From: a virus
Taxonomy: Duplodnaviria; Heunggongvirae; Uroviricota; Caudoviricetes
Length of the DNA stretch: 64,000 nucleotides
Reading direction: 5' to 3' (one strand)
IMG/VR virus record: IMGVR_UViG_3300045988_166199
Location: 9,605 to 73,604 of that record
The notes under the pieces: generated by a model
Databases searched by the model: none
Told to the model about the DNA's origin: nothing
Seen by the model: the letters and a program-made list of their open reading frames with translations, nothing else
Made by a program: the position numbers and the translations under genes
Shown here: positions 981 to 51,694 of the stretch, one piece after another
How the letters are laid out: every line of letters starts with the position of its first letter
How positions within the stretch are numbered: the stretch's first letter is position 1

Positions 981-1083
981 CTATGCCAACTTCCCAGACA
1001 CATTCCCTTCCGTTTCCACTTCCAAAAACTGCCACCAGTCGCTATCATCCGCTCATTGCAATAAGTAAGTAACTACCTATCAG

Positions 1084-1833
1084 GTGAGCCACATGAGCCA
1101 AATCTTTTTTGATACCATTGACAACGACCAGTACGACTTCATGACAGAGTGGAATACCGCTGTTATGGACAAGTGGGTCGCTGAAAACATTGGTTTGTCG
1201 CGCTGCAATGACGAGGCTGAACTCTTCGAGACGAAGTGGTTTGATTACCGCGACATGCATCCTCTCATGGCCACCTGTCTTTTTACGGAGGCATACAAAC
1301 GTCAGTACTCAAATATCATGCTGACGCACGGTCGCGAACACTTTGAAACAGCTCCGTTCACCACCGGGTTAAAACGCCTGCCTTATCAGGAGTTGTCGAC
1401 TGCCAATAAAACGTCGCTATGGAAAGCACGCCAGTTTGCTGATCGCTATTGCTGTTCATACGACTACTTTATCTCCACGGTTCTTTCCGCAGCTGCACGG
1501 CGTCTGTGGGACAAGTTGCCGCGCCCACAGCATTTATGGCAGCCAGAACTGATTGAGATATTCGAAGAGAAATTATCCAGACGCGCAACAACCCGTCTGG
1601 ATGACTCTCTGGTTAGCTTTAAGCATATGGGAGACATGCAGTTCAACCCGATTCAGGAAAGCTATTTTGAGTGGATTCTGGAGCGTTTGCGCATCATCCC
1701 CCGCAGCAAGCGCATACGCGCAATTTTCTCTGCTATCTGGCTAATGGAAATCGTTCCAGAGCGCCTTATTTCCGCCCACTTTCCAGAAGAACTGGAAGAA
1801 GCACGGCGGTTTATTGATCCCCTATCTAATTAA
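1084..1833 (+). CDS. hypothetical protein (249 aa)
   Basis: ORF preceded by the recurrent TAAGTAAGTAACTACCTATC motif; no recognisable domain. Confidence 0.5.
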   Translation: MSHMSQIFFDTIDNDQYDFMTEWNTAVMDKWVAENIGLSRCNDEAELFETKWFDYRDMHPLMATCLFTEAYKRQYSNIMLTHGREHFETAPFTTGLKRLPYQELSTANKTSLWKARQFADRYCCSYDYFISTVLSAAARRLWDKLPRPQHLWQPELIEIFEEKLSRRATTRLDDSLVSFKHMGDMQFNPIQESYFEWILERLRIIPRSKRIRAIFSAIWLMEIVPERLISAHFPEELEEARRFIDPLSN

Positions 1834-1876
1834 CTAATACTAGAAAACAATTTGTTTAAAAAACAAAGGAAAGCAC

Positions 1877-3217
1877 ATGACCGAACTTTGCCATACAGGA
1901 CGCGGGCTGTCCGAAGAGTTTGATGAAGATTTCCAGAACAGACTGACGGCATATTTTTGTCGTGATCACGAGTTTCTTACTCGTGCGGGAGATCTGGTTG
2001 TGCCTAGCCAATTTGCCAATGCGGCCAATGCCATATTGGTTAATATGGTTTCGGGCTATTACCGTATGTACAAGAGCGCGCCTTCTTCATCTGCGATTCT
2101 GGATATGCTTAAGCGCGCGAAACGCGATAAGACCATCCGTGAGGAACTCTTCCCGGATGTTGTTGCTGCGTTTAAGCGCATCCTTGCAGAAAAATTGTCT
2201 GATACCTCGTACATGGTTGACCAGGTATCCACATTCGCAAAAAGTGTAGCGTTTGATGATGCTCTGATTAAAGCTGCTGAACTGAAAGAGAAGGGCGACT
2301 TTCAGGGGGCGATGGCAATCATGGCCAAGGTTCAGCAGATAGGCTCGAACGAAGCGACCGGAATCTATGACTACTACACCTCCGCAAGTGAGCGATTGAA
2401 AGCGCGTGAATATGAGGCTTCAGAGGAGTATGTGCCAAACAGCATTACAACTGGACTCCCTCTGCTCGATAGGTTGCTGTACCAAAAAGGCTGGGCGAAG
2501 CGTGAAATGGTGCTCTTCATGGGGTTCGCTAAATCCGGCAAATCGACCGCAATGGGTGAGTTTTCCATAAACGCAACGCTTGCTGGCTACAATGTTCTGT
2601 ATCTCTCGCTGGAGGTTCACACCACCATTTTATCCGACCGTTTTGATGCAAGATTGTCGGAGACAGAAATGTCCAAGCTGGTGGAACGGCGCGATGAGGT
2701 TCATCGTAAGTTGGCAGAGTTGGGAGCCACGAAGGGGATTGGTAGTTTGTGGGTGGTTGAGCGTCCGTCAGGAAGTATGTCACCGGCAGATCTGGACCGT
2801 ATGCTTAACAGCATGAAAGCCAACGGCATGGTGCCTGACATGGTTGTTGTCGACTACGCAGATTTGATGCGTGCCAGTTATGACCTTCGTGATGATCGCG
2901 CCAACATTCGTAGTATCTACACCGATTTACGTGCTCTTTATGACAAGCATAACGTTGCTGGTATCACGGCGTCGCAAACAAACCGTGAAGGTGGCGCGTC
3001 AGAAGTTGCCACAATGATGCACGCTGCCGACAACATCGAAAAAGTACGTATTGCTGACCTGGTAATAACGATCAACAAAACCGAAGAAGAAGAAGCGAAA
3101 GGAGAGGCTCGTCTCTACTTTGCTGGTTCGCGTAACCAGCAGGGAGGGATCAGCATTCGCGTTAAACAAAACCTCGAACAAATGCGCTTCATTGAGCGAA
3201 TCTTAGACGTTACCTAA
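1877..3217 (+). CDS. DnaB-like replicative DNA helicase
   Basis: Walker A GFAKSGKST, Walker B-like DMVVVDYADLM, SQTNREG motif typical of DnaB/gp4-family helicases; extended RBS context AAAGGAAAGCACATG; immediately upstream of primase. Confidence 0.75.
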   Translation: MTELCHTGRGLSEEFDEDFQNRLTAYFCRDHEFLTRAGDLVVPSQFANAANAILVNMVSGYYRMYKSAPSSSAILDMLKRAKRDKTIREELFPDVVAAFKRILAEKLSDTSYMVDQVSTFAKSVAFDDALIKAAELKEKGDFQGAMAIMAKVQQIGSNEATGIYDYYTSASERLKAREYEASEEYVPNSITTGLPLLDRLLYQKGWAKREMVLFMGFAKSGKSTAMGEFSINATLAGYNVLYLSLEVHTTILSDRFDARLSETEMSKLVERRDEVHRKLAELGATKGIGSLWVVERPSGSMSPADLDRMLNSMKANGMVPDMVVVDYADLMRASYDLRDDRANIRSIYTDLRALYDKHNVAGITASQTNREGGASEVATMMHAADNIEKVRIADLVITINKTEEEEAKGEARLYFAGSRNQQGGISIRVKQNLEQMRFIERILDVT

Positions 3218-3298
3218 AAAATAAGCGTGGAGAACACCTCCACGCTTGATTCATTGGTGAAACAACTTTTCTTTTGCCAAACCACAAAAGAAAAACAC

Positions 3299-6264: not shown

Positions 6265-6389
6265 AGGTGAATGCTGGGCTGCGGATACGCCCGGCATCTT
6301 AGTATAAAGAACTATTGCACCTAAAATGATAAGTATATACATACTTAAGTTTTTGTAAGAATACTTTCATCCGTTAGCTAGGAGTTGGT

Positions 6390-7172: not shown

Positions 7173-7239
7173 GCTCTCTGTGTGTCGTTTTTTACGCAAA
7201 TAATGATAGGTAAGCACAAGATTATTTCTGGCGGTAATT

Positions 7240-7710: not shown

Positions 7711-9029
7711 AAAAGTTGATCGCACTTAAGCATAAGCTGGACGAAATGAAAGCTATGGGAACCAATGCAAAAAAAGAGGCATTGGCCAACATGGATGACT
7801 TTGAACAAAGCATGGTTTCATTGATGCTCAACCCTTTCATCCGTTTTGGGGTAAAGAAATACAAAGTGGCAGAGCCGCTTAGTGAGTCCGTCCCAAGTGA
7901 CGAAAAAGCCATTGATGTACTGAATAAGCTGGCCTCTCGCGAGCTGACGGGGAACGCAGCAATAGCTGCTGTTGAGTCTATCGTGGCGTCAATGTGCGCC
8001 GATGGGCAGGACGTCTTCCGTCGTTTCCTCTTAAAAGATCCGAAAGCTGGCGTTGGGATTAGCCTATGCAACAAGGTTTTTGAAAATCCCATTCCGAAAT
8101 TCGAGGTGCAGCTGGCGTCACCGTATAAAGAAAAAGGCGACAAATACCCCTTCAAGCCAAACCCTAAAGCAAAATGGCCGATGATTGGCAGCCTTAAGCT
8201 CGATGGTTTGCGAGTAATTTGCGAGGTTATTGTTGACGAAGAAGAGGTTAACTTCCTTTCTCGTACTGGTAATCCAATCACGTCTCTCGATCACCTAAAG
8301 CCAGCCATGCTCGAATTAGGCAAACTTTCAGGCCACAAACACATCTTCTTCGATGGTGAAGGCACAGCCGGTTCATTTAACCAGTCCGTATCTGCATTGC
8401 GCAAAAAGAACGTGCAGGCAATTGGCGCTATTTATCATGTTTTCGACTTCTTCCTACCGGAATGGCGAGCACAGGCTAAATCCAAAGAGTATGCAAAGAC
8501 AGGTATGAAGCTGAAAGAGCGCCTGGCTATGCTCGTGGCGTTGTTCAAAAACGATCGCAGTGAAGGCTACGCACAAGACATTCACCTGCATCCGTTCTAC
8601 ATCATCCATAGCCACGAAGACTTCATCGAACGCTTCATGAAACGCCTGGACGATAACGAAGAAGGGGAGATGGGCAAAGATCCGAACTCTGTTTACGAGT
8701 TTAAACGTACCCGCAGCTGGTGGAAGTTAAAAGACGAAGATTCAGAAGATGGTGAAATTATCGATTTTGAGCCGGGCGACCCGGACTCTGGTTTTGCCAA
8801 CACGCTTGGGAAAATTGTTATTCGTCTTGAAAACGGCGTCATCGTTCGTGCGAGCGGCATTAAGCATAAATATCTGGACGAGATCTGGAACAACAAAGAG
8901 AAGTACCGTGGTCGTATTGTCGAGGTTCATTGTCACGAGAAAACACCTGATGGCAGCTTACGCCACCCACGACTGAAATGGCCGCGTTGCTTACGCGATA
9001 CCGAAGATCGAATCGGAGATAAAGAATGA
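7707..9029 (+). CDS. ATP-dependent DNA ligase
   Basis: Motif I KLDGLR (KxDGxR adenylation lysine), motif V-like SWWKLKDE; T4 ligase-like. Confidence 0.8.
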   Translation: MKKLIALKHKLDEMKAMGTNAKKEALANMDDFEQSMVSLMLNPFIRFGVKKYKVAEPLSESVPSDEKAIDVLNKLASRELTGNAAIAAVESIVASMCADGQDVFRRFLLKDPKAGVGISLCNKVFENPIPKFEVQLASPYKEKGDKYPFKPNPKAKWPMIGSLKLDGLRVICEVIVDEEEVNFLSRTGNPITSLDHLKPAMLELGKLSGHKHIFFDGEGTAGSFNQSVSALRKKNVQAIGAIYHVFDFFLPEWRAQAKSKEYAKTGMKLKERLAMLVALFKNDRSEGYAQDIHLHPFYIIHSHEDFIERFMKRLDDNEEGEMGKDPNSVYEFKRTRSWWKLKDEDSEDGEIIDFEPGDPDSGFANTLGKIVIRLENGVIVRASGIKHKYLDEIWNNKEKYRGRIVEVHCHEKTPDGSLRHPRLKWPRCLRDTEDRIGDKE

Positions 9030-9241
9030 TCGTATTAAGTAAACGGGAGAAAGAAACGCTTCATGAAATAAGTAAGTGGCCGGAGTTCCCTGAGTACTGG
9101 AAGCCTAAAACGCGAGCTAAGTTAGAGCGTTTAGGGTTGGTTGCAAACGTTTCTGAAACGTGGCGCTCGGCCAACTACCAGTTAACTGATAAAGGGAAAT
9201 TATTGCTACAGCAATTAGTAGAATCAGGAGCCTTTAAATGA
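9026..9241 (+). CDS. hypothetical protein (71 aa)
   Basis: ORF overlapping ligase stop. Confidence 0.4.
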   Translation: MIVLSKREKETLHEISKWPEFPEYWKPKTRAKLERLGLVANVSETWRSANYQLTDKGKLLLQQLVESGAFK

Positions 9242-9677: not shown

Positions 9678-10454
9678 AAATACAATAATAAGTATTTACT
9701 TACCTATCTTTTATGTATAAGATGACTTTGTTTTCGTTGAGACGCGACTGTTTGAACTTAAATACAAGTGCAAACGAAGAAGTCTATCTGGCAGTAGCCT
9801 AATAAGCCAAACACCAGCGAGGTCAGTTTCCAGCCTCGTTACCGAAATGGGACACACTGAGCGAGTGTGATTGCAGAACGCAGGAGGGAACATGAGAGTT
9901 CCCTCCGATGAAGTAACAGAATGGGCGGTCAGTATATTTTCAACTCATATACGACTCCCGGATTCTTAGCCAATGACCGCCCATCCTGTTACGTCATTTT
10001 GTTCAATTATGTCGTTTATACTGGGTTAAAAAGCGGCGACGTAGCCCGGCTGGTATGGTTAGCCAGCACACAACGTTGAGGCCATTACATTTTTATCAAT
10101 TCTAAGGTTCTATTCACAGAGATACCGGCGAGCGTTGATATGTAACATGTTGGGCAAACATTCAATCGGAGTAGTGGCCTCAACGTTGTGAAGACAGGAT
10201 TGTTGTATAGGTTTAACCACTGTTGCCATTAGTGCCTGTTTTCACAACAAATGATTCCATACATCACATTGTATAAATTACAAAGTAGGTGCTGTCCTCA
10301 GAAACATCATCTACTTAAAGATTTTGCCTTCTATTGAGCGAAGTCGAAAACGTCTGGCACTAACGGAAAGTGCCAGTAGCGGTGTGTTTCCTGGCAGAAA
10401 CTAACACCGCCGCGATTGGCACTGTTGAGTAATAAATACTGGCAGTGCTGAATT

Positions 10455-10529
10455 GATGGTGTAGCTCAGCGGTAGAGCAGTTGGCTGTTAACCAACTGGT
10501 CGGTGGTTCGAATCCACCCACCATCGCCA
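10455..10529 (+). tRNA. tRNA-Asn (anticodon GTT)
   Basis: Cloverleaf: acceptor gatggtg/caccatc, anticodon loop ctGTTaa, T-loop ggttcgaatcc, 3' CCA; sequence differs from host asn tRNAs. Confidence 0.8.
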
Positions 10530-10534
10530 ATTTA

Positions 10535-10621
10535 GGGGAGTTAGTCCGTAGAGGTAGCGGGACAGACTGTAAATCTACTGTCATTGCGACTCGGGTGGTT
10601 CGACTCCATCACTCCCCACCA
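10535..10621 (+). tRNA. tRNA-Tyr (anticodon GTA)
   Basis: Acceptor ggggagt/actcccc, anticodon loop ctGTAaa, long variable arm, ggttcgactcc T-loop, CCA. Confidence 0.8.
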
Positions 10622-10625
10622 AATT

Positions 10626-10701
10626 GCCGGTTTAGCTCAGTTGGTAGAGCGCCTGCCTTGTAAGCAGGATGTCAGCGGTTCGAGTCCGTTAACCGGCACC
10701 A
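10626..10701 (+). tRNA. tRNA-Thr (anticodon TGT)
   Basis: Acceptor gccggtt/aaccggc, D-arm tagctcagttggtagagc, anticodon loop ctTGTaa, T-loop ggttcgagtcc, CCA. Confidence 0.75.
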
Positions 10702-10925
10702 ATACAACGATAAGATCATTACGGTTAATCGTCGTTCATGTGCACAATGACTGGTCGAAAGGTAGTGATCTTACCGTTGTGGTGGATTCGCAGACTGATG
10801 CGATAGCTTTCTTGGATGTTAGGGAAATGCGGCCGCAAATCTTCCCTTTCGCGAGCGGTGATCGTCCGTAGTCCTAATTGGCTGCACCGTATGCCGGAGA
10901 TTCAGTACCGGCCACCACAACGGCC

Positions 10926-11012
10926 GGAGAGTAGGGAGCATGGTGCTCAAGCGGTCTTGAAAATCGTCCCATTGTGCAAACGATGATGGTTCGATTCCAT
11001 TACTCTCCGCCA
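10926..11012 (+). tRNA. tRNA-like gene with long variable arm (possibly tRNA-Ser, anticodon TGA; atypical D-arm)
   Basis: Acceptor ggagagt/actctcc, T-loop ggttcgattcc, CCA end; anticodon stem weak and D-loop short, so isotype uncertain. Confidence 0.5.
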
Positions 11013-11167
11013 GACACAGCGTTGAGCGGTTTGGCCTTTTAATCAACTCGATTAAGACTCCGCTAACATAAACCAGACCGCTCAACGCTGTGATTGACAA
11101 TTACGGCAGACGTTCTTAACCATAGCTTGCTAACATCCTAGCAACACTTTTTTTCAGCGCAATATTC

Positions 11168-11190
11168 AAAGGGGCTTCGGCCCCTTTTCT
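11168..11190. terminator. hairpin terminator (bidirectional)
   Basis: aaaggggc ttcg gccccttttct. Confidence 0.5.
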
Positions 11191-12402
11191 TCAAAAAAGT
11201 TTTATAAATTCATAATTCTGGTCAATTAAGGATTCAATACACACCATGCAAAAATCTACATCGTTAAAATCAGGTGTGTAATATTCATCCTCATAACATT
11301 CATTTAGACCTTCAATCAATTTTTCTTTAAAAACTCCCCACGTTTCAATATGAACCATTTCCATATAAGGCGCATGTGTATGTACTTGCAATACATCCCA
11401 GGTGTCTATAACCTCGATCCGCGGCTTGCAATTAATTTTTTCTAAATATGCCCTCCCAGAATTGTAAATTTTCGACATTGATGCCCCAAAACCTGATGGT
11501 TGGTAATGAGTGTAAATGTCATAAATTTTTTGTCCTATTCTAGGGAGTTGAGAAGCATTGGATATTTGTGGCGAATGAAAGTATCGCTCTATGGAAGAAA
11601 ACGCAGAAACATTAACTAGAGTAATCGTATATGGTGCTAAAGTTCTCTCGTTCAAATTTCTACATAAAATAGCAAACCCATGGCTATTAGTCTTTTCACC
11701 GTCTGAGGACATTTTTGCCATGCTGGCTTTAATAACATTCAATTTCGAATGTAAACGAGAAGTGGAAGTCGGTTGATTATACATTTCATCATCATACAAA
11801 CATATATGAAACCCGCCAAGATGACGAAATGAGAACTTGAGTGCTTCTTCCGCAATAACTAATTTATTAATATCTAAAGGAGTAAGTGATACGTTACCTT
11901 GTAAATCATAGCAAGGTTCTAAACATAGAAAGTTTTTCTTCTGCCACACGATCATATTAAAAATAAAGTGTCTAACCAAAGGTGGCCAGTCAGGTGATAT
12001 AAGTACATTGGTAATATCTCCATCAGACAAGTATGACAAGTAACTTTTTAGTTCCGCAGCATATGCCACTAGCTCAGTTCCAGCTTCCCTTGTTGGTGTT
12101 GAAAAATTTTTTAACTCAATAAGAACTAAGGATTCATTCTCTGTTGAATAAGCAACGACATCAGGTCTTAATATCTCAGATTTTGTTGCTGAGATATTCT
12201 CATCATCTGTCATTAAATGTAACAATGTTATGTTCTTTAAACAAAACTGATAACTCTCCTTAATTTTTTTCTCTTCGGGTCTTTTCGGATTAAATTCATT
12301 TAATTTATCAATATTGATGATTGAATTATATAATCCATCTTGATCAGATAATTTGTCAATTATCCAATTTTGCATTTCCTTTTCGCTTAAAAATATTGAC
12401 AC
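11191..12402 (-). CDS. hypothetical protein, downstream partner of Abi-like gene (403 aa; AbiGii-like size; possible PD..(D/E)xK-like motif)
   Basis: Co-directional, 26-bp spacing from upstream gene; AT-rich codon usage; segment ILRPDVVAYS...LVLIELK compatible with a nuclease-type D...ExK motif (inference only). Confidence 0.55.
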   Translation of the reverse strand: MSIFLSEKEMQNWIIDKLSDQDGLYNSIINIDKLNEFNPKRPEEKKIKESYQFCLKNITLLHLMTDDENISATKSEILRPDVVAYSTENESLVLIELKNFSTPTREAGTELVAYAAELKSYLSYLSDGDITNVLISPDWPPLVRHFIFNMIVWQKKNFLCLEPCYDLQGNVSLTPLDINKLVIAEEALKFSFRHLGGFHICLYDDEMYNQPTSTSRLHSKLNVIKASMAKMSSDGEKTNSHGFAILCRNLNERTLAPYTITLVNVSAFSSIERYFHSPQISNASQLPRIGQKIYDIYTHYQPSGFGASMSKIYNSGRAYLEKINCKPRIEVIDTWDVLQVHTHAPYMEMVHIETWGVFKEKLIEGLNECYEDEYYTPDFNDVDFCMVCIESLIDQNYEFIKLF

Positions 12403-12428
12403 TAATTAGGCTCCCGTTAAACCAAAAA

Positions 12429-13295
12429 TTAAAAATCTTGCTTTACTTTATCCATGGTCAGAATTTTGCTAATAATTGAAGATTCAAATCCATCTAAACC
12501 TGAGAGAAAGTTAATTAGCTTTTGGATATGTTGTTCTTTAGGTATAAGTATATATTTTATATCATTGAACTCAAAATCAATGCCAAACTTTGAAAATTTT
12601 GAGCTAATTTTTGCTTTGTCATCAGAAGTGATAACACGCTCCAAACTCAGACTAGGCCATAAATCACCAATAAAAGGAGCTGGCACATAACGCCACTCTT
12701 TCTCGTCTGCATATATATAATTCTCTATTGTTTTATTATCTTTTCGCTCTAGCTTGCCTCTGTAATTTTTCATATAACGCAGTAAATTATATAGATCAGA
12801 ATATTCTGCTTTCAATTTCTCAAACTCTATTCTGTTTTTGGTATCTAAATTTCCTCTAGCCTTCCAAAGCGGCACCAACTTATTTTTAATAAGTCGAATT
12901 CTGGCATTGTATTTAGAAAATATTTCACTACTCTTATTCATATATAGAACTGGGTGTAGACCTTTCTTTTCCGCCCAAGACTTAGTTAGCCCAAGACCGA
13001 ATTCTCCATATTTTCCGCTATGATCTCTGATTTGTGATAGTTTTATGTCACAAAACGATACCATTGGTACTGCAAACCTCCTGCGTCCCCCGACTCCTCT
13101 TATTTCCTCGCGAGCAAGAAATGGTTTAAAATATTTCTCAGCCAATATGCTATAGAAAGCATCTTCGTTTTTTGTAAAATGAAACAACGTGGTTGGATGA
13201 AGACTATAAACAGATTCAACATTCGCATCAGGATTTTCAAGGATAGTCATTTTACACCTTGTGGAAAGCCAGTTTAGTTCTGTAAATAGTATCAC
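12429..13295 (-). CDS. abortive-infection-like protein (AbiGi-like, 288 aa)
   Basis: Motifs LFHFT, VPMVSFCDIKLSQ, YGEFGLGL.K.WAEKKGL.PVLY resemble AbiGi-type proteins as recalled from memory; AT-rich; first gene of a two-gene operon. Confidence 0.55.
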   Translation of the reverse strand: MILFTELNWLSTRCKMTILENPDANVESVYSLHPTTLFHFTKNEDAFYSILAEKYFKPFLAREEIRGVGGRRRFAVPMVSFCDIKLSQIRDHSGKYGEFGLGLTKSWAEKKGLHPVLYMNKSSEIFSKYNARIRLIKNKLVPLWKARGNLDTKNRIEFEKLKAEYSDLYNLLRYMKNYRGKLERKDNKTIENYIYADEKEWRYVPAPFIGDLWPSLSLERVITSDDKAKISSKFSKFGIDFEFNDIKYILIPKEQHIQKLINFLSGLDGFESSIISKILTMDKVKQDF

Positions 13296-13399
13296 ACGAC
13301 AGGCGGCTATTCTTCTATCAATAAATGATAGGTAAGCACTTACTTTTTACGCACGTTAACTGTATAGTTCTTTCGGATACTCACTTGAAAGGACTCAAT

Positions 13400-13543
13400 A
13401 TGGGAAATAAATGTAAACATGCGCGTCGCGCATCTCGTCAGGTGCAGAAGTCAAATCCATACATTCACGAGCACTACCACCTCAGCTCTTTCACTAACCG
13501 CTACACGTTCCCCAGCGAAGCGCATAACGAGGCAAAGCAATGA
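13400..13543 (+). CDS. small basic protein (about 47 aa; ORF track 13325..13543)
   Basis: Internal ATG start MGNKCKHARRASRQ; stop overlaps glutaredoxin start (ATGA). Confidence 0.3.
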   Translation: MGNKCKHARRASRQVQKSNPYIHEHYHLSSFTNRYTFPSEAHNEAKQ

Positions 13544-13785
13544 CGATCACTATCTATGGACGAGATAACTGCTCATACTGCAAACGTGCGGTCGAGCTGG
13601 CGAAGCAGCTTCACGGTCACGGTTTTGGCGATTACGAATACATCGATATTGTGTCTGCTGGGATAGACAAAGAGAAATTGAGCGCCCTGGTTGGCAAGCC
13701 GGTGGAGACCATACCGCAGGTGTTCGTAAATGGCGAATCTATCGGTGGCTATACGGAATTCGCCGCTCTGGTGAGTACATTATAA
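13540..13785 (+). CDS. glutaredoxin-like protein (NrdC/NrdH-type)
   Basis: CxxC active site CSYC near N-terminus, 81 aa thioredoxin-fold pattern, C-terminal GG.YTEF; followed by terminator. Confidence 0.8.
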   Translation: MTITIYGRDNCSYCKRAVELAKQLHGHGFGDYEYIDIVSAGIDKEKLSALVGKPVETIPQVFVNGESIGGYTEFAALVSTL

Positions 13786-13788
13786 TTA

Positions 13789-13811
13789 AGAGCCGCTTAG
13801 GCGGCTTTTTA
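13789..13811 (+). terminator. rho-independent terminator
   Basis: agccgc ttag gcggc ttttt. Confidence 0.7.
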
Positions 13812-13977
13812 CATGAAAGTGTGCGCTCAAATCAACTATATCTATGAAAAGGACAGTTATAAATATTAAAAATATCTAAAATCCCTTCCGATATATGAAT
13901 TATCAGATTAAAATTTCACACAATGTGCTTTTAATGAGTTATTATTTCACCTTTTGTTGCCTTTACAGTTTAGGTTT

Positions 13978-14967
13978 TCACGTCACGATTATTCTTTTAC
14001 CTTGTCTATCTTTAATCTCAGTCACATACCCTTTCAGTGCCTCTTCATTTAGTAACAGAGCCTCTAATTTCATATCACCAATGATAATGGAGTATATAAG
14101 GTTATAATATGCACATAGTTTTTCATGTATTTCAGGAGAAATGTTTCTACCACGGTGATAATCCATTCCATAAACCGAATCAATTCCTGAGTTCACTATC
14201 TTCATCTGAATTTCAAAAAAATCATTATTTAAATCAAAGTAAACAATAGGGACCTCATATCTTCTGCTAGAAAAATCCATTGGTGATAGATAGTTAAGAC
14301 CATTTGCACTGACCTTCACTTGAATTCCAGCCTGTATACCTGAATTCGACGTTGGAGCAGAAATAAGTAATTGAGAAAGTGGGTCTCGTTTGTCTATCCA
14401 CACAATGTCCCGTTGAGTATCATTAGGTTGATATTTAGTAGGATAGTTAATTTTCGTATAGTTGAGTCCAGTCCCAACAGCTTTATAATTAGACAAACTA
14501 TCTGTGAAAGGGGTATATCTCTTTGCTAATAATGCCCAGTTTTCATTTTGTTTCGCGTTTTTTTCACATTCTTCAACAATGAGTGCTTCCGCAATTTTAC
14601 CTAATATTCTCATAGTTGTTTTATGGGGATCTAGTTCGATAATGATGTTTGACTTGATCACTCCTTCTTCATTAATACCAACAAGACCTAACTCTTTATC
14701 CATGAGTTCAAATAAATTTTCCCCATGCTCAATTGCTAACAAAGCTGAAGGTCGTGATAATAATGAAGAGTTATTCCAATCTCCGAGGGAGATATCCAGA
14801 CCTAAATCAATACCTTTAGTCGTCACTACTAGCTGAGGTTTGGGAGGCGTAGCCCCTAATAACTCAGATAGCGTGTTGACTTCCGGTGTCTCTTTTATCA
14901 TTTTTCTTATCCTGTTGCAGCGATCGCATGACAATACTATAAAACCAGCCATTTTCAAGTAAATCAA
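13978..14967 (-). CDS. hypothetical protein (329 aa ORF; likely start at internal Met MIKETPEV with AGGA RBS)
   Basis: Long AT-rich ORF between glutaredoxin and integrase; no confident domain. Confidence 0.55.
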   Translation of the reverse strand: MIYLKMAGFIVLSCDRCNRIRKMIKETPEVNTLSELLGATPPKPQLVVTTKGIDLGLDISLGDWNNSSLLSRPSALLAIEHGENLFELMDKELGLVGINEEGVIKSNIIIELDPHKTTMRILGKIAEALIVEECEKNAKQNENWALLAKRYTPFTDSLSNYKAVGTGLNYTKINYPTKYQPNDTQRDIVWIDKRDPLSQLLISAPTSNSGIQAGIQVKVSANGLNYLSPMDFSSRRYEVPIVYFDLNNDFFEIQMKIVNSGIDSVYGMDYHRGRNISPEIHEKLCAYYNLIYSIIIGDMKLEALLLNEEALKGYVTEIKDRQGKRIIVT

Positions 14968-15044
14968 TTACCTTTTAGGTGATGAAGATAAAAGTGAAGC
15001 CAACCCCTCCGTTCGAAAAGATAGATTCAAAAAAATCGCCCCCC

Positions 15045-15077
15045 AATGATTCCATACCTACTATGTATGGAATCATT
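15045..15077. promoter_or_regulatory. perfect 12-bp inverted repeat with 9-bp spacer upstream of integrase (candidate recombinase core site or operator)
   Basis: aatgattccata cctactatg tatggaatcatt; left arm also occurs as direct repeats at 9237 and 10250. Confidence 0.5.
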
Positions 15078-15175
15078 ACTGAAAATGAGTTACTTTTACT
15101 CTTGATCCTATAAGAATCTATGCCTAATATACTGTTTACTTATACAGTGCATCGGCGTAACTCGGTGATTGTCAT

Positions 15176-16279: not shown

Positions 16280-16666
16280 AGACTTTATGGCCTCAACAAC
16301 CTTTTGTGATGCGCCTTTCTCTTTACCGAATCGCTCGTTATATGCAGCAAGAACCTGTTTTTCGTCCTCGTTAAGAGGAGCAGTGCCTTCTTTGTATAAA
16401 AATGCTGCGAGTTCGGGTTGGCGTTCTTCCAGCACCATCATCATAAGACGACTTGGCTCAATACCCAGTGCCAGCGCCAGCGGACGAACCTTATCGATAG
16501 GCAAAGGAATTTTGCCGCTTTTAATTAAAGAAAGGTTGTTGGCGTTTTTATACCCAATTGTTTTGGCTATCTGGGCCTGGCTCATAGGTGAGGATTCAAT
16601 CAACCCTGCGATAAAAGCAGCGTAGCGACTTTCTATAAATTCAATCTTGTTATCAGACATGGTCAC
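16274..16666 (-). CDS. XRE-family helix-turn-helix transcriptional regulator
   Basis: HTH motif SQAQIAKTIGYKNANNLSLIKSGK; convergent with and overlapping integrase 3' end. Confidence 0.7.
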   Translation of the reverse strand: MTMSDNKIEFIESRYAAFIAGLIESSPMSQAQIAKTIGYKNANNLSLIKSGKIPLPIDKVRPLALALGIEPSRLMMMVLEERQPELAAFLYKEGTAPLNEDEKQVLAAYNERFGKEKGASQKVVEAIKSL

Positions 16667-17124: not shown

Positions 17125-17222
17125 CCCCTCTTCTCCCTGCGCGAATGGCTTAGTTCCCTGTTCGCGCAGTGCTACATTAAACACACTAGTAAATAATTTG
17201 TTTTCATAACAAAGGATTAGCC

Positions 17223-39514: not shown

Positions 39515-39548
39515 TTTCATTGATAGGTAAGTGCTTATCTATTAACAT

Positions 39549-39580
39549 GGGCCACTATATTTAGTGGCCCTCTTTATTTG
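39549..39580 (+). terminator. hairpin terminator
   Basis: gggccacta tattt agtggccc tctttattt. Confidence 0.6.
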
Positions 39581-39587: not shown

Positions 39588-41903
39588 ATGATAAGCATCG
39601 TAAAACGTAACGGCCAAACAGAGCCGTTATCCGAAGAAAAATACAACCGCGTCGTAATGTATGGCGTAGAAGGCATTCGTGGTGTAAGCGCATCCGCTGT
39701 AGCAATGGGAGCTGCGGCCAGCATTTTTGATGGGATTACCACCAGCCAGTTGCATGAGGCTTTGGTTAAATCTGCCGCTGATTTGATCTCACCAGAAGCA
39801 CCAAATTACTCACAGGTGGCTGCCCTCCTGAACATTTTTAAAATCCGCAAAGATGCCTTCGGTCGTTACGACTATCCGAACTTCTACCAACACATTGTCA
39901 AGAACGTTAACAAGGGCGTTTATGACAAGGATTTGCTGACACATTATTCGTTTGAAGAGATCGAAGAACTCGGCAATTACATTAAGCCGAAACGTGACGA
40001 TCTTTTTGGCTATGCAGCTACGGTGCAGTTGCAAAGCAAATACCTCGTTCAAAACCGTGTTACTGGTGAGATTCATGAGGGGCCGCAACATATCTATATG
40101 CTGGTAGGCATGTGTCTGTTCCAGAATTGGGAAGACGACTGCGCTGGCAAAACACGTATGGAGATGGTCAAAGGTTTCTATGACGTTACAAGTACGTTCA
40201 AACTGTCTCTGCCCACACCAATCATGGCCGGCGTCCGTACTCCAACCCGTCAGTTCTCCAGTTGTGTGCTGATTGAGTCTGGCGATAGTCTGAAAGGGAT
40301 TAGTGCAGCTTCAGCCGCAATTATCGACTACGTTTCACGTCGTGCTGGAATTGGTATTGGTTTTGGCCGTATCCGTGCGCTGGGCAGCAAGATCCGCAAT
40401 GGTGAAGCCACCCATACCGGAGTTATTCCATTCCTGAAGCATTTCCAGACGGCTGTTAAATCTTGTTCGCAAGGTGGTGTTCGTGGTGGCGCAGCAACAG
40501 CGTTTTACCCGATCTGGCATCTTGAAGTTGAAAGTCTGCTGGTGGTGAAAAATAACCGTGGTATTGATGAAAACCGCGTTCGCCATCTTGATTACGGCGT
40601 CATGAGTAACCGTCTAATGTACCGTCGACTCGTCAGAAGCGAGAACATCACTCTGTTCAGCCCGCATGATGTGCCTGATATGTACGAAGCCTTCTTCACA
40701 GACCAGGATCTGTTTGAAAAGCTGTACCATAAATACGAAGCCGATGATTCAATTCGCAAGAAGTCAGTACCTGCCATTGAGCTGTTCTCATCTCTGATGC
40801 AGGAACGAGCGTCCACGGGCCGAATTTATATTGCGAACGTCGATCATATTAATGAGCATGGCGCTTTCATTCCTGCTCTTGCACCTGTCCGCCAGTCAAA
40901 CCTGTGCATGGAGATCACTCTACCCACTCGTCCACTGGCATTTACCGACGACCCGAACGGTGAGATCGCGCTATGCACTTTATCCGCTTTTAACCTCGGA
41001 GCCATCCGTTCACTGGAGTCTCTTAAAGAGGTGGCGTTCTATGCCGTTGCTGCACTGGATTCGTTACTGGATTATCAAGACTATCCGATGGAGGCAGCCG
41101 AAGTGCCTGCCAAAGCTCGTCGTAGCTTGGGAATTGGTGTAACCAACTTTGCTTATTACCTGGCAAAGAATGGCGTTCGTTATTCTGATACCGCTGGCAA
41201 TAAACTGGTGCATGAAACGTTCGAAGCTATCCAGTATTACCTTCTTGATGCCAGCTGCCGACTTGCTGAAGCAAAAGGTGAGTGTGACTGGTTTGAGCAG
41301 ACCAAGTACGCAATTGGTCAGTTGCCGATCGACCATTACCGTTCTTCATTAGACGAAAGTGGCGAAACCAACTTTGAGTTAAAGATGCCGTGGGAAGAAC
41401 TGCGTGAACGTATTGCAAAATACGGCCTTCGCAACTCCACACTGACGGCACAAATGCCATGCGAGACTTCCAGCCAGATCACTAATTCCACCAACGGCAT
41501 CGAACCGCCTCGTGGCCCGGTGTCGGTGAAATCTTCTAAGGACGGCATCGTTAAGATGGTCGTGCCTGAGTTTGAAAAACTGAAGGAACAGTATGAATAC
41601 CTGTGGGATATGCCGGACAACCGCGGCTATCTGACAAAGGTGGCGATCATCCAGAAGTTCTTTGACCAGGCTATTTCAGCCAATACCAACTATGACCCTT
41701 CTCGCTTTGAAGGCGATAAAGTCCCAATGATGACGCTACTGTCAGATTTGCTTCTCGCCTACAAGATGGGAGTTAAAACGCTTTACTACCACAACACCAG
41801 AGATGGGGCAGGAAAGCGTGATGACGACGAACCGAAGAATCCACTTACGCAAGCTGTTGCCGTCGAGCCAGAAGATGAGTGCGACGGAGCCTGCAAAATC
41901 TGA
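39588..41903 (+). CDS. nrdA: ribonucleoside-diphosphate reductase alpha subunit (class Ia)
   Basis: ATP-cone N-terminus (VKRNGQTEP), active-site region PTRQFSSCVLIE and NLCMEI, close to E. coli NrdA throughout. Confidence 0.95.
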   Translation: MISIVKRNGQTEPLSEEKYNRVVMYGVEGIRGVSASAVAMGAAASIFDGITTSQLHEALVKSAADLISPEAPNYSQVAALLNIFKIRKDAFGRYDYPNFYQHIVKNVNKGVYDKDLLTHYSFEEIEELGNYIKPKRDDLFGYAATVQLQSKYLVQNRVTGEIHEGPQHIYMLVGMCLFQNWEDDCAGKTRMEMVKGFYDVTSTFKLSLPTPIMAGVRTPTRQFSSCVLIESGDSLKGISAASAAIIDYVSRRAGIGIGFGRIRALGSKIRNGEATHTGVIPFLKHFQTAVKSCSQGGVRGGAATAFYPIWHLEVESLLVVKNNRGIDENRVRHLDYGVMSNRLMYRRLVRSENITLFSPHDVPDMYEAFFTDQDLFEKLYHKYEADDSIRKKSVPAIELFSSLMQERASTGRIYIANVDHINEHGAFIPALAPVRQSNLCMEITLPTRPLAFTDDPNGEIALCTLSAFNLGAIRSLESLKEVAFYAVAALDSLLDYQDYPMEAAEVPAKARRSLGIGVTNFAYYLAKNGVRYSDTAGNKLVHETFEAIQYYLLDASCRLAEAKGECDWFEQTKYAIGQLPIDHYRSSLDESGETNFELKMPWEELRERIAKYGLRNSTLTAQMPCETSSQITNSTNGIEPPRGPVSVKSSKDGIVKMVVPEFEKLKEQYEYLWDMPDNRGYLTKVAIIQKFFDQAISANTNYDPSRFEGDKVPMMTLLSDLLLAYKMGVKTLYYHNTRDGAGKRDDDEPKNPLTQAVAVEPEDECDGACKI

Positions 41904-42008
41904 CATATGGTGGGGTATATCCCCACCTTCTCTTTGATTTGTAAGCCTTGTTTAAACAAATAAGATAACAACTTGTTTAAACATATCAAAAAGCAAAAGG
42001 AAAAACAC

Positions 42009-43151
42009 ATGTCATATTCAACGTTCCGTTTGGGTGCTAATGATGCAACCAAAGAGCCTATGTTCCTCGGACAATCTGTCAACGTGGCACGTTACGATCA
42101 GCAAAAATACCGTGATTTTGAAAAGTTGATTGAACGTCAATTGTCTTTCTTCTGGCGGCCGGAAGAAGTTGATATTTCGAGCGATCGTATCGACTTCAAC
42201 ACGAAGCTGCGGGACCACGAACGTCACATTTTTCTGAGCAATCTCCGTTATCAAACGTTACTCGATTCAGTTCAGGGACGTAGCCCAAATGCAACGTTGC
42301 TGCCGCTTATCTCTATTCCTGAACTGGAAACGTGGGTTGAAACATGGTCTTTCTCTGAGACTATCCATAGCCGCAGCTACACCCACATTATTCGTGGCAT
42401 GGTGGACGATCCGAGCATTGTTTTTGACGGTATTGTTACGGATGAAGAAATCATCAACCGAGCGATCAGTATCTCTGCTGAATATGACAGGCTTTATGGG
42501 ATGACCTGCGAGCGCCAGTCGTTAGGTGAGAAAGAGTTTGAACGTCTGTACGTAAATGAATATGGCTGGGAGCCATACCCTTTGCACCGTCAGCTTTTCC
42601 GCACGTTGGTGTCCATTAATGCGCTTGAGGCGATCCGTTTCTATGTAAGTTTTGCATGTACGTTTGCCTTTGGCGAACGGAAGTTGCTTGAGGGTAACAC
42701 CAAAATTATGCGCTTTATTGCCCGTGATGAAGCTCTGCATTGCGAAGGAACTGAACGCATGATCCGCTTCATGCGTACCGGTCGCGAAGGTTTATTGTGG
42801 AAAGAGATTGCTGCTGATGAAGAAAACGTCATTTACGACACCATGAAATCAGTCGCCGAACAAGAAATGAACTGGGCAGACTATCTCTTCAAAGACGGTT
42901 CGATGATTGGTTTAAACGCGGATATTCTGAAGACCTATGTAAAATACCGAACCAATCTGGCTATGAATCGTCTTGGCCTGAAGGCTTTATTTCCAGAAGT
43001 TACCACTGATCCGCTGGTCTGGATGAACAAGTGGTTGTTAACCGACACACTGCAAATTGCACCACAAGAGGCAGAGCAAAGCACATATCTGGTAGGTCAG
43101 ATCGATTCTACCGTGGATAAGGCTTCTCTAAGCCAGTTTGCAGACCTGTAA
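42009..43151 (+). CDS. nrdB: ribonucleoside-diphosphate reductase beta subunit
   Basis: Diiron/tyrosyl-radical motifs (e.g. [18 protein letters not shown]); start at ATG 42009 after AAAGGAAAAACACATG. Confidence 0.9.
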
Positions 43152-44098: not shown

Positions 44099-44167
44099 TT
44101 GTAGGTAGTTATCTATCTATGTATATTGTGTTGGCGCGTTAAATTCCTGAAGCAACTATTCGTTTTT

Positions 44168-44193
44168 GGTGGCCATAGGCCACCATTTTTTTT
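44168..44193 (+). terminator. rho-independent terminator
   Basis: ggtggcc atag gccacc attttttttat. Confidence 0.7.
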
Positions 44194-44270
44194 ATCTATC
44201 TGGCCTTGTTTCCTCAATAAATGTAAACTCACTTAATGAATAAGTGATTACTTATCTTTGTGAGGTTTTT

Positions 44271-48922: not shown

Positions 48923-49105
48923 CGTTCCCCTACTGAAAATAAAGCCCATAGAGAGCTTTATAGTGCTGGGTAAGCCAATCACATACCCAGCACCACAAAA
49001 ACGCGCCAGAGAGCTTCTCGTTTGCATTTCTGGCGCGTTTTATTTGATTGCCAGACATAAAATCAAATGCAAAAATAGGTATTTACTTACCTATCGAGAA
49101 AGAAG

Positions 49106-49699: not shown

Positions 49700-49720
49700 T
49701 TTGTTCTGGCGTCTGTAATT

Positions 49721-49785
49721 AGCCTGCTTCTGTATATATAAATAACTACATATTAATTATTATTATACGGAAGCAGGCTGTTTTG
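49721..49785 (+). terminator. long-stem hairpin plus T-run (copy 2 of repeated ~60-bp palindromic element)
   Basis: agcctgcttctgtatatataaata ... tattatacggaagcaggct gtttt; near-identical to 919-980. Confidence 0.6.
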
Positions 49786-49860
49786 TATCAGAGACTCCAG
49801 ACCTGAACATCACTACAGAATCCACTAGAACCCCTTCCCAGACGCTTTAAAATCGATTTT

Positions 49861-50115
49861 ATGAACCACTTTAAGGAAACCAACATGTCATACCCGACTA
49901 ATGTCGTTGCGCTCGTAGAGAGCGATTTTCTGGCCCAGGCTCGTGAAATGATGAAAGATCGTGAGCAGGCTTTCAACTTGTACGAATGGGCAATTAAGTG
50001 CTTGCATCTTGGCGAGCATCGCGAACTTGTTGAACAGCTTTTAGGTGAGTTGATCAATGAGGTGTTTGCCTTGAATGTTCAACTACATGGTCGAGAAAAT
50101 AATCAATCGAAATGA
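49861..50115 (+). CDS. hypothetical protein (84 aa)
   Basis: ORF with RBS aaggaaacc. Confidence 0.4.
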   Translation: MNHFKETNMSYPTNVVALVESDFLAQAREMMKDREQAFNLYEWAIKCLHLGEHRELVEQLLGELINEVFALNVQLHGRENNQSK

Positions 50116-50699
50116 TAGATAAGTACAAACTATTCATAAGATGAATTGTAAGTGCTAAGATCTGATAGTTTCCAGTCGTAGACTGGAGACTCGACCTGAT
50201 GGGTGGAGGTAAGCGTCACTGGCGTCAGGTTTAAAAAAGCTCACTACCAGCGTAGAACCGGTGCCGTTTAGGTGTCGGGGAAGGGGGAACCAAAGTGAGC
50301 GGAGACAAGGGTCACTTTATGATTGTCGAGTCTGGGGTGTTTCGAGAGGTTGAATCCAGTACTCCCCTTCATAAAGTGTGGGAAGATCTCGGTTCTGGGG
50401 TGCTGTCATCCATAACTTCCCAAGTCTAAGCTGGCAGTAGACTTAGACCATAACTTTTCAGGTTATGAAAGGACCAGGTTGGTGAGGGATTTTTATACTC
50501 ACCTCCCTGGGAGAGTATTACCTGAAAAGACAACCTCTCACTTCGTTCGAGGTGAACTTCACTCACTTCGTTCGTTCAGTTCAGGTTTATAAAAACCTGT
50601 TCTGGGAAGTAATTTGTTTATTTTAATAATTATTAACACGCACGCGTGTGCGCACGCGCGAGGAAAAAAATCGGCGCGGCGCTTGATTCAGGAGTTTAT

Positions 50700-51293
50700 A
50701 TGACGACGAAGACACCATCCCGATCGCAAGCAAAAACTCGCAAAAAAGCCAAAAACAAAAATTCTCCCCGCACCAATCCCACAACGCCTGTCGTAGAGTT
50801 CAATCCCCAGCTTAAAACCGTAAAAATCTACAGTGATGGCTCTTGCCTTAAAAATCCGGGTGGCCCGGGCGGTTACGGTATAGTTCTCCAGTATCGTGGT
50901 GAGGAACGCGAGTTCTCAGATGGTTTTCATAGCACCACCAATAACCGCATGGAGATGATGGGGGCACTTATCGGGCTGGAGCGTTTGAAATATCCATGCA
51001 ACGTTATTTTGCACTCTGATAGCCAGTATCTGAAAAACGGCATGACACAGTGGATGAAATGGTGGAAACGTAATGGATGGATGACTTCTGATAAAAAACC
51101 GGTAAAGAATGTTGATCTGTGGAAACGTCTGGATGAGGACGCAAGTCGACATAATGTTCGCTGGAAGTGGGTTAAAGGTCACGCCGGGCATCGTGAAAAT
51201 GAAATATGTGATCGACTCGCGAAGATCGCAGCTTTTTCCGCAGCCGATACGCCTCACAAGAAAGACATTGGTTTTATTTACAACAAGTGGTAA
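50700..51293 (+). CDS. ribonuclease H (RnhA-like) with basic N-terminal extension
   Basis: [17 protein letters not shown], ...[33 protein letters not shown] match the RNase HI fold; start at ATG 50700 after RBS caggag. Confidence 0.85.
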
Positions 51294-51694
51294 GTAAGTG
51301 TTTACCTATCATATTAAATCATGTATCTTATCAGCGTCAGGATGACAATGTGTCGGTAAGACACAGTTCCAGGATGGAACGAGAAAGGCGGCTGGCGATC
51401 GCCAGCCGCAACTCTTTCTGACACTGGATGGAGTCCACATGGCACGTCAAACCTATTTCACTTCTGCAACTAAACGTCCTCGTTCACTACGTCAAATTTT
51501 GGCCGAATTATTTAGCGGTCGTGTTCTGTCACGTCTTGATGAACTGGAGACTACCGTTCGGTTGCTGAATGAACGTTTAGATAAGCAAGCGTCAGTTGTT
51601 GCGAACGTGGGGGCGATTGTTACCTCTGGTTCTTCACACCAAGCGAAAAATGCACGGCCTTTAGTGAAGGAGAAAAACAACAAGGACAGTTCGA

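Follow-up and report, generated by a model that had tools for sequence, protein, structure and literature searches.

A palindrome dispersed through the lytic modules of an SSU5/pHCM2-type phage-plasmid as a candidate operator for an element-encoded repressor

The DNA considered here is a stretch of 64,000 nucleotides (the window; positions 9,605 to 73,604 of the IMG/VR virus record IMGVR_UViG_3300045988_166199, Caudoviricetes) that by its annotation represents the replication, recombination and nucleotide-metabolism half of an Escherichia coli phage-plasmid of the SSU5/pHCM2 type, and our subject is a short palindrome that recurs in its intergenic DNA. The first 25 kb of the window are 100% identical to E. 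coli plasmids of ~112 kb (NZ_CP073997.1 and NZ_CP104116.1), 95–96% identical to E. coli phages such as Cyrano across 57–70% of the length, and ~80% identical to Salmonella phage SSU5 across 48%; the whole element measures ~110 kb. Annotated products in the window include a DnaB-like helicase, primase, ligase, the Pol III alpha subunit, a gp32-like single-stranded DNA-binding protein (SSB), SbcCD-like proteins, NrdAB, thymidylate synthase, Dam and RNase H. Next along the element lie a RepB-type plasmid initiator and an accessory block (a type I restriction system, a UmuD-like gene, apbC and metG), and the virion genes occupy the remaining part of the plasmid, outside the window.

Aligned sequence contexts resolve the recurrent sequence into one 24-bp imperfect palindrome with the symmetrised consensus TGATAGGTAAGTACTTACCTATCA (unit 20–24 bp). 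The initial annotation had described a recurrent 12–20-bp intergenic motif at 15 or more sites, shortly upstream of genes. The recurrence was borne out: all 14 of the positions it listed are copies of one palindrome, scoring 16.6–31.2 bits. Three copies can be added, of which that at 6327 is clear, that at 49736 is weak and that at 16687–16710 is degenerate, although conserved in evolution. The unit is a dyad-symmetric 20–24-mer and not a directional 12-mer. The copies in the window are the following (strand unassigned throughout; scores from a weight matrix):

1059–1082: CAATAAGTAAGTAACTACCTATCA, 26.9 bits; noncoding, 10 nt upstream of the start codon at 1093; orthologues at SSU5 33598, Klebsiella pneumoniae (Kp) 74981 and Cyrano 31294.
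6327–6350: TGATAAGTATATACATACTTAAGT, 21.5 bits; noncoding, 39 nt upstream of the gene at 6390; SSU5 orthologue at 38176.
7204–7227: TGATAGGTAAGCACAAGATTATTT, 19.1 bits; left half strong and right half weak; the gene at 7240 starts 12 nt downstream.
9686–9709: TAATAAGTATTTACTTACCTATCT, 30.1 bits; 8 nt past the stop at 9677 and ~750 nt upstream of a tRNA cluster; SSU5 orthologue at 41771.
13326–13349: TGATAGGTAAGCACTTACTTTTTA, 30.5 bits; in the divergent gap between 12429–13250 (minus strand) and 13400–13543 (plus strand).
16687–16710: degenerate, core GGTAAGTGCTTACC at 16692–16705, 6.1 bits; directly downstream of the -10 of the candidate repressor promoter, over the expected transcription start.
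19347–19370: TGATAAGTAATCACTTACGATATT, 16.6 bits; 15 nt past the stop of a cobT-like gene and 56 nt upstream of the gene at 19427; SSU5 orthologue at 45122.
25858–25881: TAATAAGTAAGTACTGATCTATCA, 28.3 bits; upstream of the gp32-like SSB gene (25964).
29378–29401: AAATATATAAGCACTTACTTATTA, 25.8 bits; fills the spacer and -10 of a strong sigma-70-like promoter, 3´ of a terminator hairpin at 29344–29364.
31331–31354: ATATAAGTTAGTATCTACCTATCA, 22.9 bits; abuts the ATG of a small open reading frame (ORF) at 31354.
34837–34860: AAATAGGTATATACTTACTTATAA, 26.7 bits; the SbcD-like gene (34971) lies 110 nt downstream.
39521–39544: TGATAGGTAAGTGCTTATCTATTA, 31.2 bits; 6 nt past a stop codon and followed by a hairpin with T-run (39549–39570) and then nrdA (39588).
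44234–44257: TAATGAATAAGTGATTACTTATCT, 23.5 bits; downstream of a terminator at 44167–44185; the thymidylate synthase gene (44270) begins 12 nt further on.
49073–49096: AAATAGGTATTTACTTACCTATCG, 27.3 bits; upstream of an adenine methyltransferase gene (49106), where it covers the -10 and the expected start of a promoter that is conserved.
49736–49759: ATATAAATAACTACATATTAATTA, 14.1 bits; weak motif-like copy of uncertain status, found at the same position in Cyrano (78097).
50113–50136: TGATAGATAAGTACAAACTATTCA, 21.9 bits; overlaps a stop codon (50114), with rnhA ~500 nt downstream.
51288–51311: TGGTAAGTAAGTGTTTACCTATCA, 27.4 bits; overlaps the rnhA stop (51292), and the gene at 51438 follows after 126 nt; SSU5 orthologue at 79902 (33.0 bits).

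The frequency of the motif exceeds expectation. The exact 8-mer TACCTATC occurs 9 times on the two strands against 0.75 expected, with a maximum of 4 in 100 dinucleotide shuffles, and TACTTACCTATC with at most two mismatches gives 17 matches against 3.28 expected. Noncoding DNA makes up 14.2% of the window, and the centres of all 16 sites of at least 14 bits fall within it (binomial P = 2.8e-14). Shuffle statistics for the weight matrix are circular, as it was trained on these very sites, a limitation that does not touch the exact-word counts or the noncoding test. Sixteen of the 45 gaps of at least 40 bp in the window contain the motif, no copy is found in the accessory block between 51.4 and 64 kb, and the rest of the plasmid holds ~9 further copies, all intergenic and some in tiny gaps among late structural genes. 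The motif is restricted to the intergenic DNA of the lytic modules, where the same sequence precedes early replication genes and late virion genes. One intragenic TACCTATC, at 18943, lacks a second half and is probably a chance occurrence. The proximity to genes originally proposed stood in part: location is intergenic, and the distance to the next start codon ranges from ~0 to >500 nt, several copies lying directly 3´ of the preceding stop codon.

The internal structure of the palindrome was examined in 65 sites from the E. coli element, SSU5 and the Klebsiella phage pJN2-26, which are orthologous in related genomes and not independent, a kinship that hardly affects the negative outcome for covariation. 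At core positions 2–12, base frequencies in the left half equal those in the reverse complement of the right half, weak strand asymmetry being confined to the two outermost flank positions (p = 0.005–0.01), and the core is symmetric irrespective of gene direction. Complementarity between mirrored positions (513 observed) is no higher than in shuffled pairings (520.6 ± 8.2, p = 0.83), so that there is no covariation. The halves keep their sequence rather than their pairing, which favours two independent half-sites, read by a symmetric dimer on double-stranded DNA, over a hairpin in RNA or DNA. Equivalent, independently varying half-sites are the symmetry expected of an operator for a dimeric helix-turn-helix (HTH) repressor and, as read from the sequence, point to a dimeric binder of double-stranded DNA. 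Each half-site reads ATA(A/G)GTAAGT and holds a tandem TAAG-TAAG, which gives rise to secondary matrix matches 4 bp out of register. A directional promoter as the sole reading, first suggested by the -10-like TACCTATCAT, was dropped because the halves are equivalent and TACCTATC faces away from the genes at 7205 and 39522.

Relatives of the element carry the same palindrome, with 23 sites in SSU5 and 20 in pJN2-26 in corresponding gaps, and Cyrano has the same site set as the window (18 sites at 12 bits or more in the 80 kb scanned). Upstream of nrdA, SSU5, Kp and Cyrano retain the footprint of the motif where the flank preceding it has diverged (alignment A5); upstream of the methyltransferase gene the -35, the -10 and the motif are all conserved in four elements while adjacent bases diverge (alignment A6). 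Among 120 viral-contig loci with the 14-mer core GGTAAGTACTTACC, three or more matrix matches occur only in SSU5-like loci, with the exception of one AT-rich locus. The half-site ATARGTAAGT is common to the E. coli, SSU5 and Klebsiella elements. In a second K. pneumoniae lineage (the hvKP859 plasmid) it is slightly shifted, with A favoured at position 6 and G and A equal at position 11, and a Providencia relative has TAGGTATTT-type half-sites in an unchanged GGTA-N6-TACC frame. The Acinetobacter baumannii AB-group phage-plasmid NZ_CP115642.1 (loci L135 and L136) carries 29 copies of ATCAGTCAGTACTGACTGAT with the half-site ATCAGTCAGT, in which the nGTnAGTACTnACn core is retained and two half-site positions have changed from A to C; 25 of the 28 copies tested lie outside long ORFs. 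Directly after about half of the 29 sites, at a fixed distance on the gene-facing side, stands TATACT, and the flanks are asymmetric. These copies represent the system in diverged form within the AB group. The sequence of the motif thus follows the lineage of the element and not the host, the two K. pneumoniae lineages differing slightly and Acinetobacter clearly, and this variation argues for a binder that would be encoded by the element.

Several copies lie on promoter-like sequences, the calls being matches to the consensus only. TTGAAA-17-TATTAT at 29374–29402 (10 of 12 matches), just past a terminator, overlaps copy 29378; TAGATA-17-TATCAT at 25854–25882 overlaps copy 25858; TTGATA-17-TAACAT at 39520–39548 overlaps copy 39521; and TTGCCA-17-AAAAAT at 49048–49076 runs into copy 49073. 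At copy 31331, matches are found at 31316–31344 and at 31328–31355 (TTTATA-16-TATCAT). Over the 65 sites, promoter-like matches face the genes in 40 cases and face away in 18, and those facing genes peak with the -10 starting at motif positions -1 (16), 20 (17) and 23 (7). The motif therefore covers the spacer and -10 in some predicted promoters and the -10 and +1 in others, and such a plurality of registers suits a repressor, an activator normally needing one geometry. No conserved TTGACA-like hexamer was found upstream of the 65 sites. No promoter is recognisable at the copy in the 32-bp terminase-portal gap of SSU5 or at copies directly past stop codons, where a bound protein would presumably act as a roadblock alone. 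As a separate observation, sigma-70 consensus matches fall below dinucleotide shuffles in three 20-kb segments covering window positions 1–60000 (32 against 41.5, 17 against 29.7 and 21 against 30.8), which suggests selection against stray promoters.

The window also encodes a candidate cognate repressor, with a motif core at its own promoter:

16274–16660, minus strand: gene for a 128-aa XRE/Cro-CI-type HTH protein (the XRE protein; WP_001282576.1), 100% identical to CYRAN_45 of phage Cyrano.
16734–16707, minus strand: predicted promoter of the XRE gene, TTTACA-16-TAATAT; the motif core, GGTAAGCACTTACC, begins one base after it.

The XRE protein matches PHROG 8 ('transcriptional regulator') at 1.3e-11 and Pfam HTH_19 at E = 7.8e-4 and 19.7 bits, under the curated cutoff of 30.2; the Pfam search found no S24 self-cleavage domain. 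Its AlphaFold2 model (pLDDT 77.5) has a five-helix N-terminal domain for which Foldseek returned the DNA-binding domains of C.AhdI, P22 c2, 434 repressor, HigA and Stl, with weak E-values (at least 3.9e-3) and 14–23% identity; the model would place the candidate among the Cro/CI-XRE repressors. Sequence searches of solved structures with three candidate proteins yielded nothing useful. The arrangement of promoter and motif core is conserved in E. coli, Klebsiella, Salmonella Typhi pHCM2 and Yersinia pestis pMT1 (alignment A1), and its position suggests autoregulation. An element-encoded protein with a predicted repressor fold (PHROG, AlphaFold2, Foldseek) and a site at its own promoter, the core being conserved in four genera, is what the operator of a dimeric HTH repressor calls for. 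Homologues occur in 865 plasmid records from E. coli, Klebsiella, Enterobacter, Salmonella and Y. pestis, pHCM2 and pMT1 included, always beside a tyrosine recombinase, and the Cyrano homologue is expressed 10-fold above local background in LF82 lysogens (PMC9928086). Across 24 homologues (55–98% identity) that share the motif, residues N41, S44 and K47 of the recognition helix never change, and N42 is almost constant. The Acinetobacter orthologue has 48% identity and the same synteny; its helix reads RPNVLSMIKSGE against NANNLSLIKSGK, with V at position 42, and its operator differs. Of the standard transcription factors, only the XRE protein has a detectable orthologue in the Acinetobacter element. 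A protein search with it retrieved SSU5-type elements only. Taken together, the XRE protein is the likely binder of the palindrome.

A number of findings weigh against this assignment. The copy at the XRE gene's own promoter scores only 6.1 bits, and the remainder of the 251-bp control region has half-site-like fragments only. The XRE protein is only 56–66% identical between lineages with the same motif, and 20 contiguous conserved bp are long for a single HTH dimer. Many sites lack a recognisable -35, and the TATACT at a fixed distance past about half of the Acinetobacter sites would suit a promoter element as well. Two ParB-like proteins are also common to the Acinetobacter element (36–47% identity) and are possible as an alternative binder. 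Finally, SSU5 has no XRE gene and yet has ~23 good sites, which requires that the gene was deleted recently or that another, conserved protein is the binder.

The gap in SSU5 (loci L004/L005, ~41776–42761, compared with window 9678–17222) spans the whole module of recombinase, XRE repressor and a 70-aa gene. This module is present in every plasmid-form relative sampled, and as far as its boundary SSU5 matches pHCM2 and pMT1 at 94% identity; a deletion that yielded a non-lysogenising phage would account for this most simply. We infer that SSU5 is unable to lysogenise, and its isolation as a plaque-forming phage may be owed to the absence of the module. Lytic growth of SSU5 without the XRE protein implies, if that protein is the binder, a repressor and not a required activator. 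An exclusion of the XRE protein because of its absence from SSU5 was reversed when it was found in the 865 plasmids, among them the 94%-identical relatives of SSU5, and in the Acinetobacter group.

On balance we consider it probable, if narrowly so, that the repeats are operators of one element-encoded dimeric repressor, with the XRE protein as its likely identity. The initial annotation had left the choice between a shared promoter element and an operator for an element-encoded regulator; that proposal is supported by sequence comparison, and an operator fits best in view of the symmetry, the intergenic confinement, the conserved footprints, the overlap with promoters and the lineage-dependent sequence. 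In the plasmid state, an XRE dimer would occupy ~25 operators on or next to lytic promoter cores (-35/-10 spacer, -10 and +1), where it would exclude or block host RNA polymerase and keep the genes for replication, nucleotide metabolism and virion formation silent. Read-through inside operons may be blocked as well, and the dimer would limit its own synthesis. Loss of the repressor would then switch on all lytic units together, and its removal might come about through SOS-driven convergent transcription or through an antirepressor.

Several features near the XRE gene and elsewhere in the window touch on induction and on the adjoining recombinase:

~15044–15077: lox-like site, AATGATTCCATAC-N7-GTATGGAATCATT, upstream of the recombinase gene.
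15130–15149: LexA box with one mismatch, upstream of the tyrosine recombinase gene (15176).
16274–16279: overlap between the recombinase gene and the end of the XRE gene on which it converges.
61572–61591: perfect LexA box, TACTGTATGGATAAACAGTA, upstream of the S24/UmuD-like gene (61610).

The LexA box at 15130–15149 is conserved in four genera (including Klebsiella, S. Typhi pHCM2 and Y. pestis pMT1), and this box and the convergent recombinase gene offer a possible route of SOS induction. Cyrano is induced by ciprofloxacin (PMC9928086). Neither arm of the lox-like site varies among elements from E. coli, Salmonella, Yersinia, Klebsiella and Cronobacter, and the site is probably the multimer-resolution site of the recombinase.

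Two other accounts deserve consideration, although we think each of them unlikely. The first keeps the operators as proposed and changes the protein. Five candidates were weighed: the XRE protein, a 92-aa ribbon-helix-helix (RHH)-like protein whose gene lies downstream of that for a UvsW-like helicase, an FljA-family protein, a 71-aa winged-helix-like protein (9026–9241), and a pair of proteins with a ParB N-terminal domain beside the terminase genes, which might silence in the manner of KorB. All four alternatives to the XRE protein are conserved in SSU5, which has the sites and not the XRE gene. The 92-aa protein occurs in 822 plasmid records, and its homologue CYRAN_117 is expressed 12-fold above background in lysogens (PMC9928086); its putative DNA-contacting strand nevertheless varies (TTYCQVAL, AIHCQVQL, SISCQVKL) between elements with an identical motif. 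It shares with the FljA-like and 71-aa proteins the lack of a detectable counterpart in the Acinetobacter element, which bears a related motif. The ParB-like pair, which has a copy of the motif in its divergent promoter gap, is conserved there, but Pfam recognises the ParB N-terminal domain only, and neither the ParB-like nor the FljA-like homologues are among the genes reported as expressed in lysogens (PMC9928086). Proteins of the FljA family, moreover, act on fliC mRNA (PMC2652032). The family member encoded by the element, annotated as 'repressor of phase-1 flagellin', lies outside the window (locus L003, 9305–9829, minus strand), is full-length (PF03614, E = 1.5e-84) and shows 79–84% conservation in SSU5, Klebsiella and Cyrano; its target could be the flagellin of the host, which it would silence, or mRNAs of the element itself.

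The second account, about equally doubtful, takes the motif as a promoter element, where an activator encoded by the element would bind and, at promoters without a -35, recruit or remodel the RNA polymerase of the host; the likeness would be to the Lpa-activated late promoters of P1 or to MerR-type sites in the promoter spacer. In its favour, no conserved TTGACA-like hexamer precedes the 65 sites, outer motif bases form -10-like hexamers (TATCAT, TATTAT) in a fixed register at positions 20–25, and sigma-70 matches are depleted across the window; the TATACT at a fixed distance in Acinetobacter, with its asymmetric flanks, and the sites kept in SSU5 without an XRE gene also fit. It would, however, have to operate in at least three registers relative to promoter-like hexamers, one of which, seen at the promoters of the XRE and methyltransferase genes, puts the motif past the -10, and from several copies that lie 8–12 nt from a start codon or just past a stop codon, the next gene being hundreds of nt away. 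The core is symmetric whatever the direction of the gene, the same motif precedes early and late genes, and no protein named as a late activator is found in the annotated records, which were checked by name only.

The palindrome may be part of a larger arrangement. A second dispersed palindrome, AAACAAnTTGTTT, is found 7 times in the window against 0.55 expected (13-mers at 1845, 17191, 30529, 41966, 52188, 52917 and 53631), with 10 more copies in the rest of the plasmid and 11 exact copies in each of SSU5 and Klebsiella pJN2-26. It is located ~12 nt downstream of an ATAAT-like hexamer and 15–35 nt upstream of start codons, always in gaps without the first motif, and probably either serves a second regulator or forms a leader element. 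A more far-reaching scheme, which we put forward as speculation with little weight, is a two-code intergenic system in which nearly every lytic gap carries either the first motif or AAACAAnTTGTTT; the XRE protein might act at promoters and, in the tiny late gaps, as a bidirectional symmetric roadblock to elongation, and induction could come from the integrase gene, transcribed under LexA control towards the repressor gene with which it converges. If true, this would be stoperator-like silencing in a phage-plasmid family of Gram-negative bacteria, with S. Typhi pHCM2 and Y. pestis pMT1 among its members.

It is quite improbable that the motif is a site for a host protein, or a recombination sequence at module boundaries, without a dedicated regulator of the element. 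The sites do lie at gene and module boundaries and are common to elements that exchange modules. The motif nonetheless varies with the lineage of the element, even between two lineages in K. pneumoniae; the multi-site members of the 120 viral-contig loci with the core are SSU5-like apart from the AT-rich one; and recombination alone would not maintain two equivalent half-sites or their placement over -10 and +1.

The weakest alternative, hardly credible in our estimate, is an RNA hairpin, formed by the transcribed palindrome, that would terminate transcription, direct processing or act as a translational operator, perhaps with the FljA-like protein as its ligand: several copies do lie 8–12 nt upstream of start codons, near the ribosome-binding site, and the element encodes a full-length member of the FljA family, but the halves keep sequence rather than pairing and show no compensatory variation, typical sense-strand copies would have A-C mismatches (in that at 1059, 7 of 12 pairs are complementary), start codons follow at anything from 0 to >500 nt, one copy precedes tRNA genes, and the motif is A+T-rich with neither a T-run nor a match in Rfam, whose only matches in the window are tRNAs. 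This reading, the FljA-type translational operator included, was rejected for its lack of covariation and the variable start-codon distance. A possible resemblance of the Salmonella fliC leader (TGATAAGG) to the motif is a lead only.

Some copies of the motif adjoin features of independent interest, given here with one further recurrent sequence of the window:

10455–11012: four clustered tRNA genes (Asn, Tyr, Thr and Ser), within the long gap that follows copy 9686.
31354–31533: small ORF (MKIFIEYLLLIVSIAFVIDC...), the first base of which is the last base of copy 31331; annotated in Cyrano (CYRAN_60) and SSU5 (SSU5_066) and unannotated in the closest plasmid record.
39549–39570: conserved terminator-like hairpin, GGGCCACTATATTTAGTGGCCC, with T-run, between copy 39521 and the ribosome-binding site of nrdA.
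29420–29434, 41995–42011 and 52212–52227: examples of AAACACATG, the commonest 9-mer in the window (10 copies, at ~10 genes), which in the contexts inspected sits within a common initiation region, AAGGAAAACACATG.

Transcription of nrdA must read through the hairpin at 39549–39570, which suggests an attenuator as a possibility.

Elements of the SSU5/pHCM2/pMT1 type are among the commonest phage-plasmids of Enterobacteriaceae, the family is clinically widespread, and some members carry antibiotic-resistance genes (PMC9600943). The literature searched contained no description of how their plasmid state is silenced or induced, and searches on the motif sequence, on operators or repressors of SSU5 and on repeats of pHCM2 and pMT1 found nothing relevant. 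The motif marks the lytic transcription units of these elements. A defined operator with a named candidate repressor would make several matters testable, including immunity between elements, induction by SOS-inducing antibiotics, the reason why SSU5 behaves as a lytic phage, and whether such plasmids could be cured by breaking their silencing.

Among known systems, the motif departs from three established types of site. It lacks the CTGT-N8-ACAG of a LexA (SOS) box, the LexA boxes of the window lying elsewhere. It is symmetric, unlike the stoperators of mycobacteriophage L5, which are 13-bp asymmetric sites in one orientation. It is likewise unlike the operators of P1 C1 in its symmetry and unrelated sequence, and no C1-named protein occurs in the records (a homologue was not searched for by profile).

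The likeness to lambdoid repressors lies in the palindromic operators and in the XRE model, which superposes on the DNA-binding domains of P22 c2 (3jxb) and the 434 repressor (1pra) at 1.4–1.9 Å over ~60 residues. The P22 half-site contains TTAAG, similar to the GTAAG found here. Lambdoid operators, however, are 14–18 bp and are confined to one immunity region, whereas ~25 sites of 20–24 bp are dispersed here, and the XRE protein has no S24 self-cleavage domain. P1 late promoters are activated by Lpa, as Lehnherr and colleagues reportedly established in 1991–92, and have a -10 and an inverted repeat near -22. The sites with a -10 at positions 20–25, in which the centre of the palindrome falls at about -19.5, resemble this replacement of the -35 by an inverted repeat near -20, but in the present element the register varies, early genes too are preceded by the motif, and the annotation names no Lpa protein.

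Dispersed control of an entire element is found in other settings. The global regulons of the IncP plasmid RK2 are governed by KorB and KorA, with a palindromic operator repeated about a dozen times round a plasmid of ~60 kb and many operons silenced, and the present element also encodes proteins of the ParB family. KorB sites are 13 bp (TTTAGCSGCTAAA) and often act at a distance, in contrast to the location directly on core promoters seen here, and the ParB-like proteins of this element are not reported as expressed in lysogens. For mycobacteriophage L5, the gp71 stoperators are said to have been described by Brown and colleagues in 1997; there, ~25–30 repressor sites lie in short early and late intergenic gaps, comparable to the present sites, which include the 32-bp terminase-portal gap of SSU5, too short for a promoter. 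Stoperators depend on orientation, whereas the symmetric motif lies in many instances over promoter-like hexamers, so that its copies would not be roadblocks alone.

P1 comes closer. The P1 genome paper of Lobocka and colleagues (2004) is said to set out a C1 repressor with dispersed operators, and P1 is a phage-plasmid of ~100 kb in which this one repressor has many operators scattered over lytic promoters, including those of replication genes. The C1 gene adjoins a Cre/lox-type recombinase module, just as the XRE gene abuts a tyrosine recombinase gene with a lox-like 13-bp inverted repeat upstream. Differences are found in the operators, which in P1 are asymmetric 17-mers (ATTGCTCTAATAAATTT) bound by a 283-aa repressor of another fold and here form a 20–24 bp palindrome with a 128-aa XRE candidate, and in the late operons, which P1 controls indirectly through Lpa and which here carry the motif within the late structural region itself. 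Control of this kind is known from P1, and the literature searched describes none for this family. By analogy, the C1 regulon of P1 would be the closest functional counterpart of the system proposed here, with the L5 stoperators and RK2 KorB as looser parallels.

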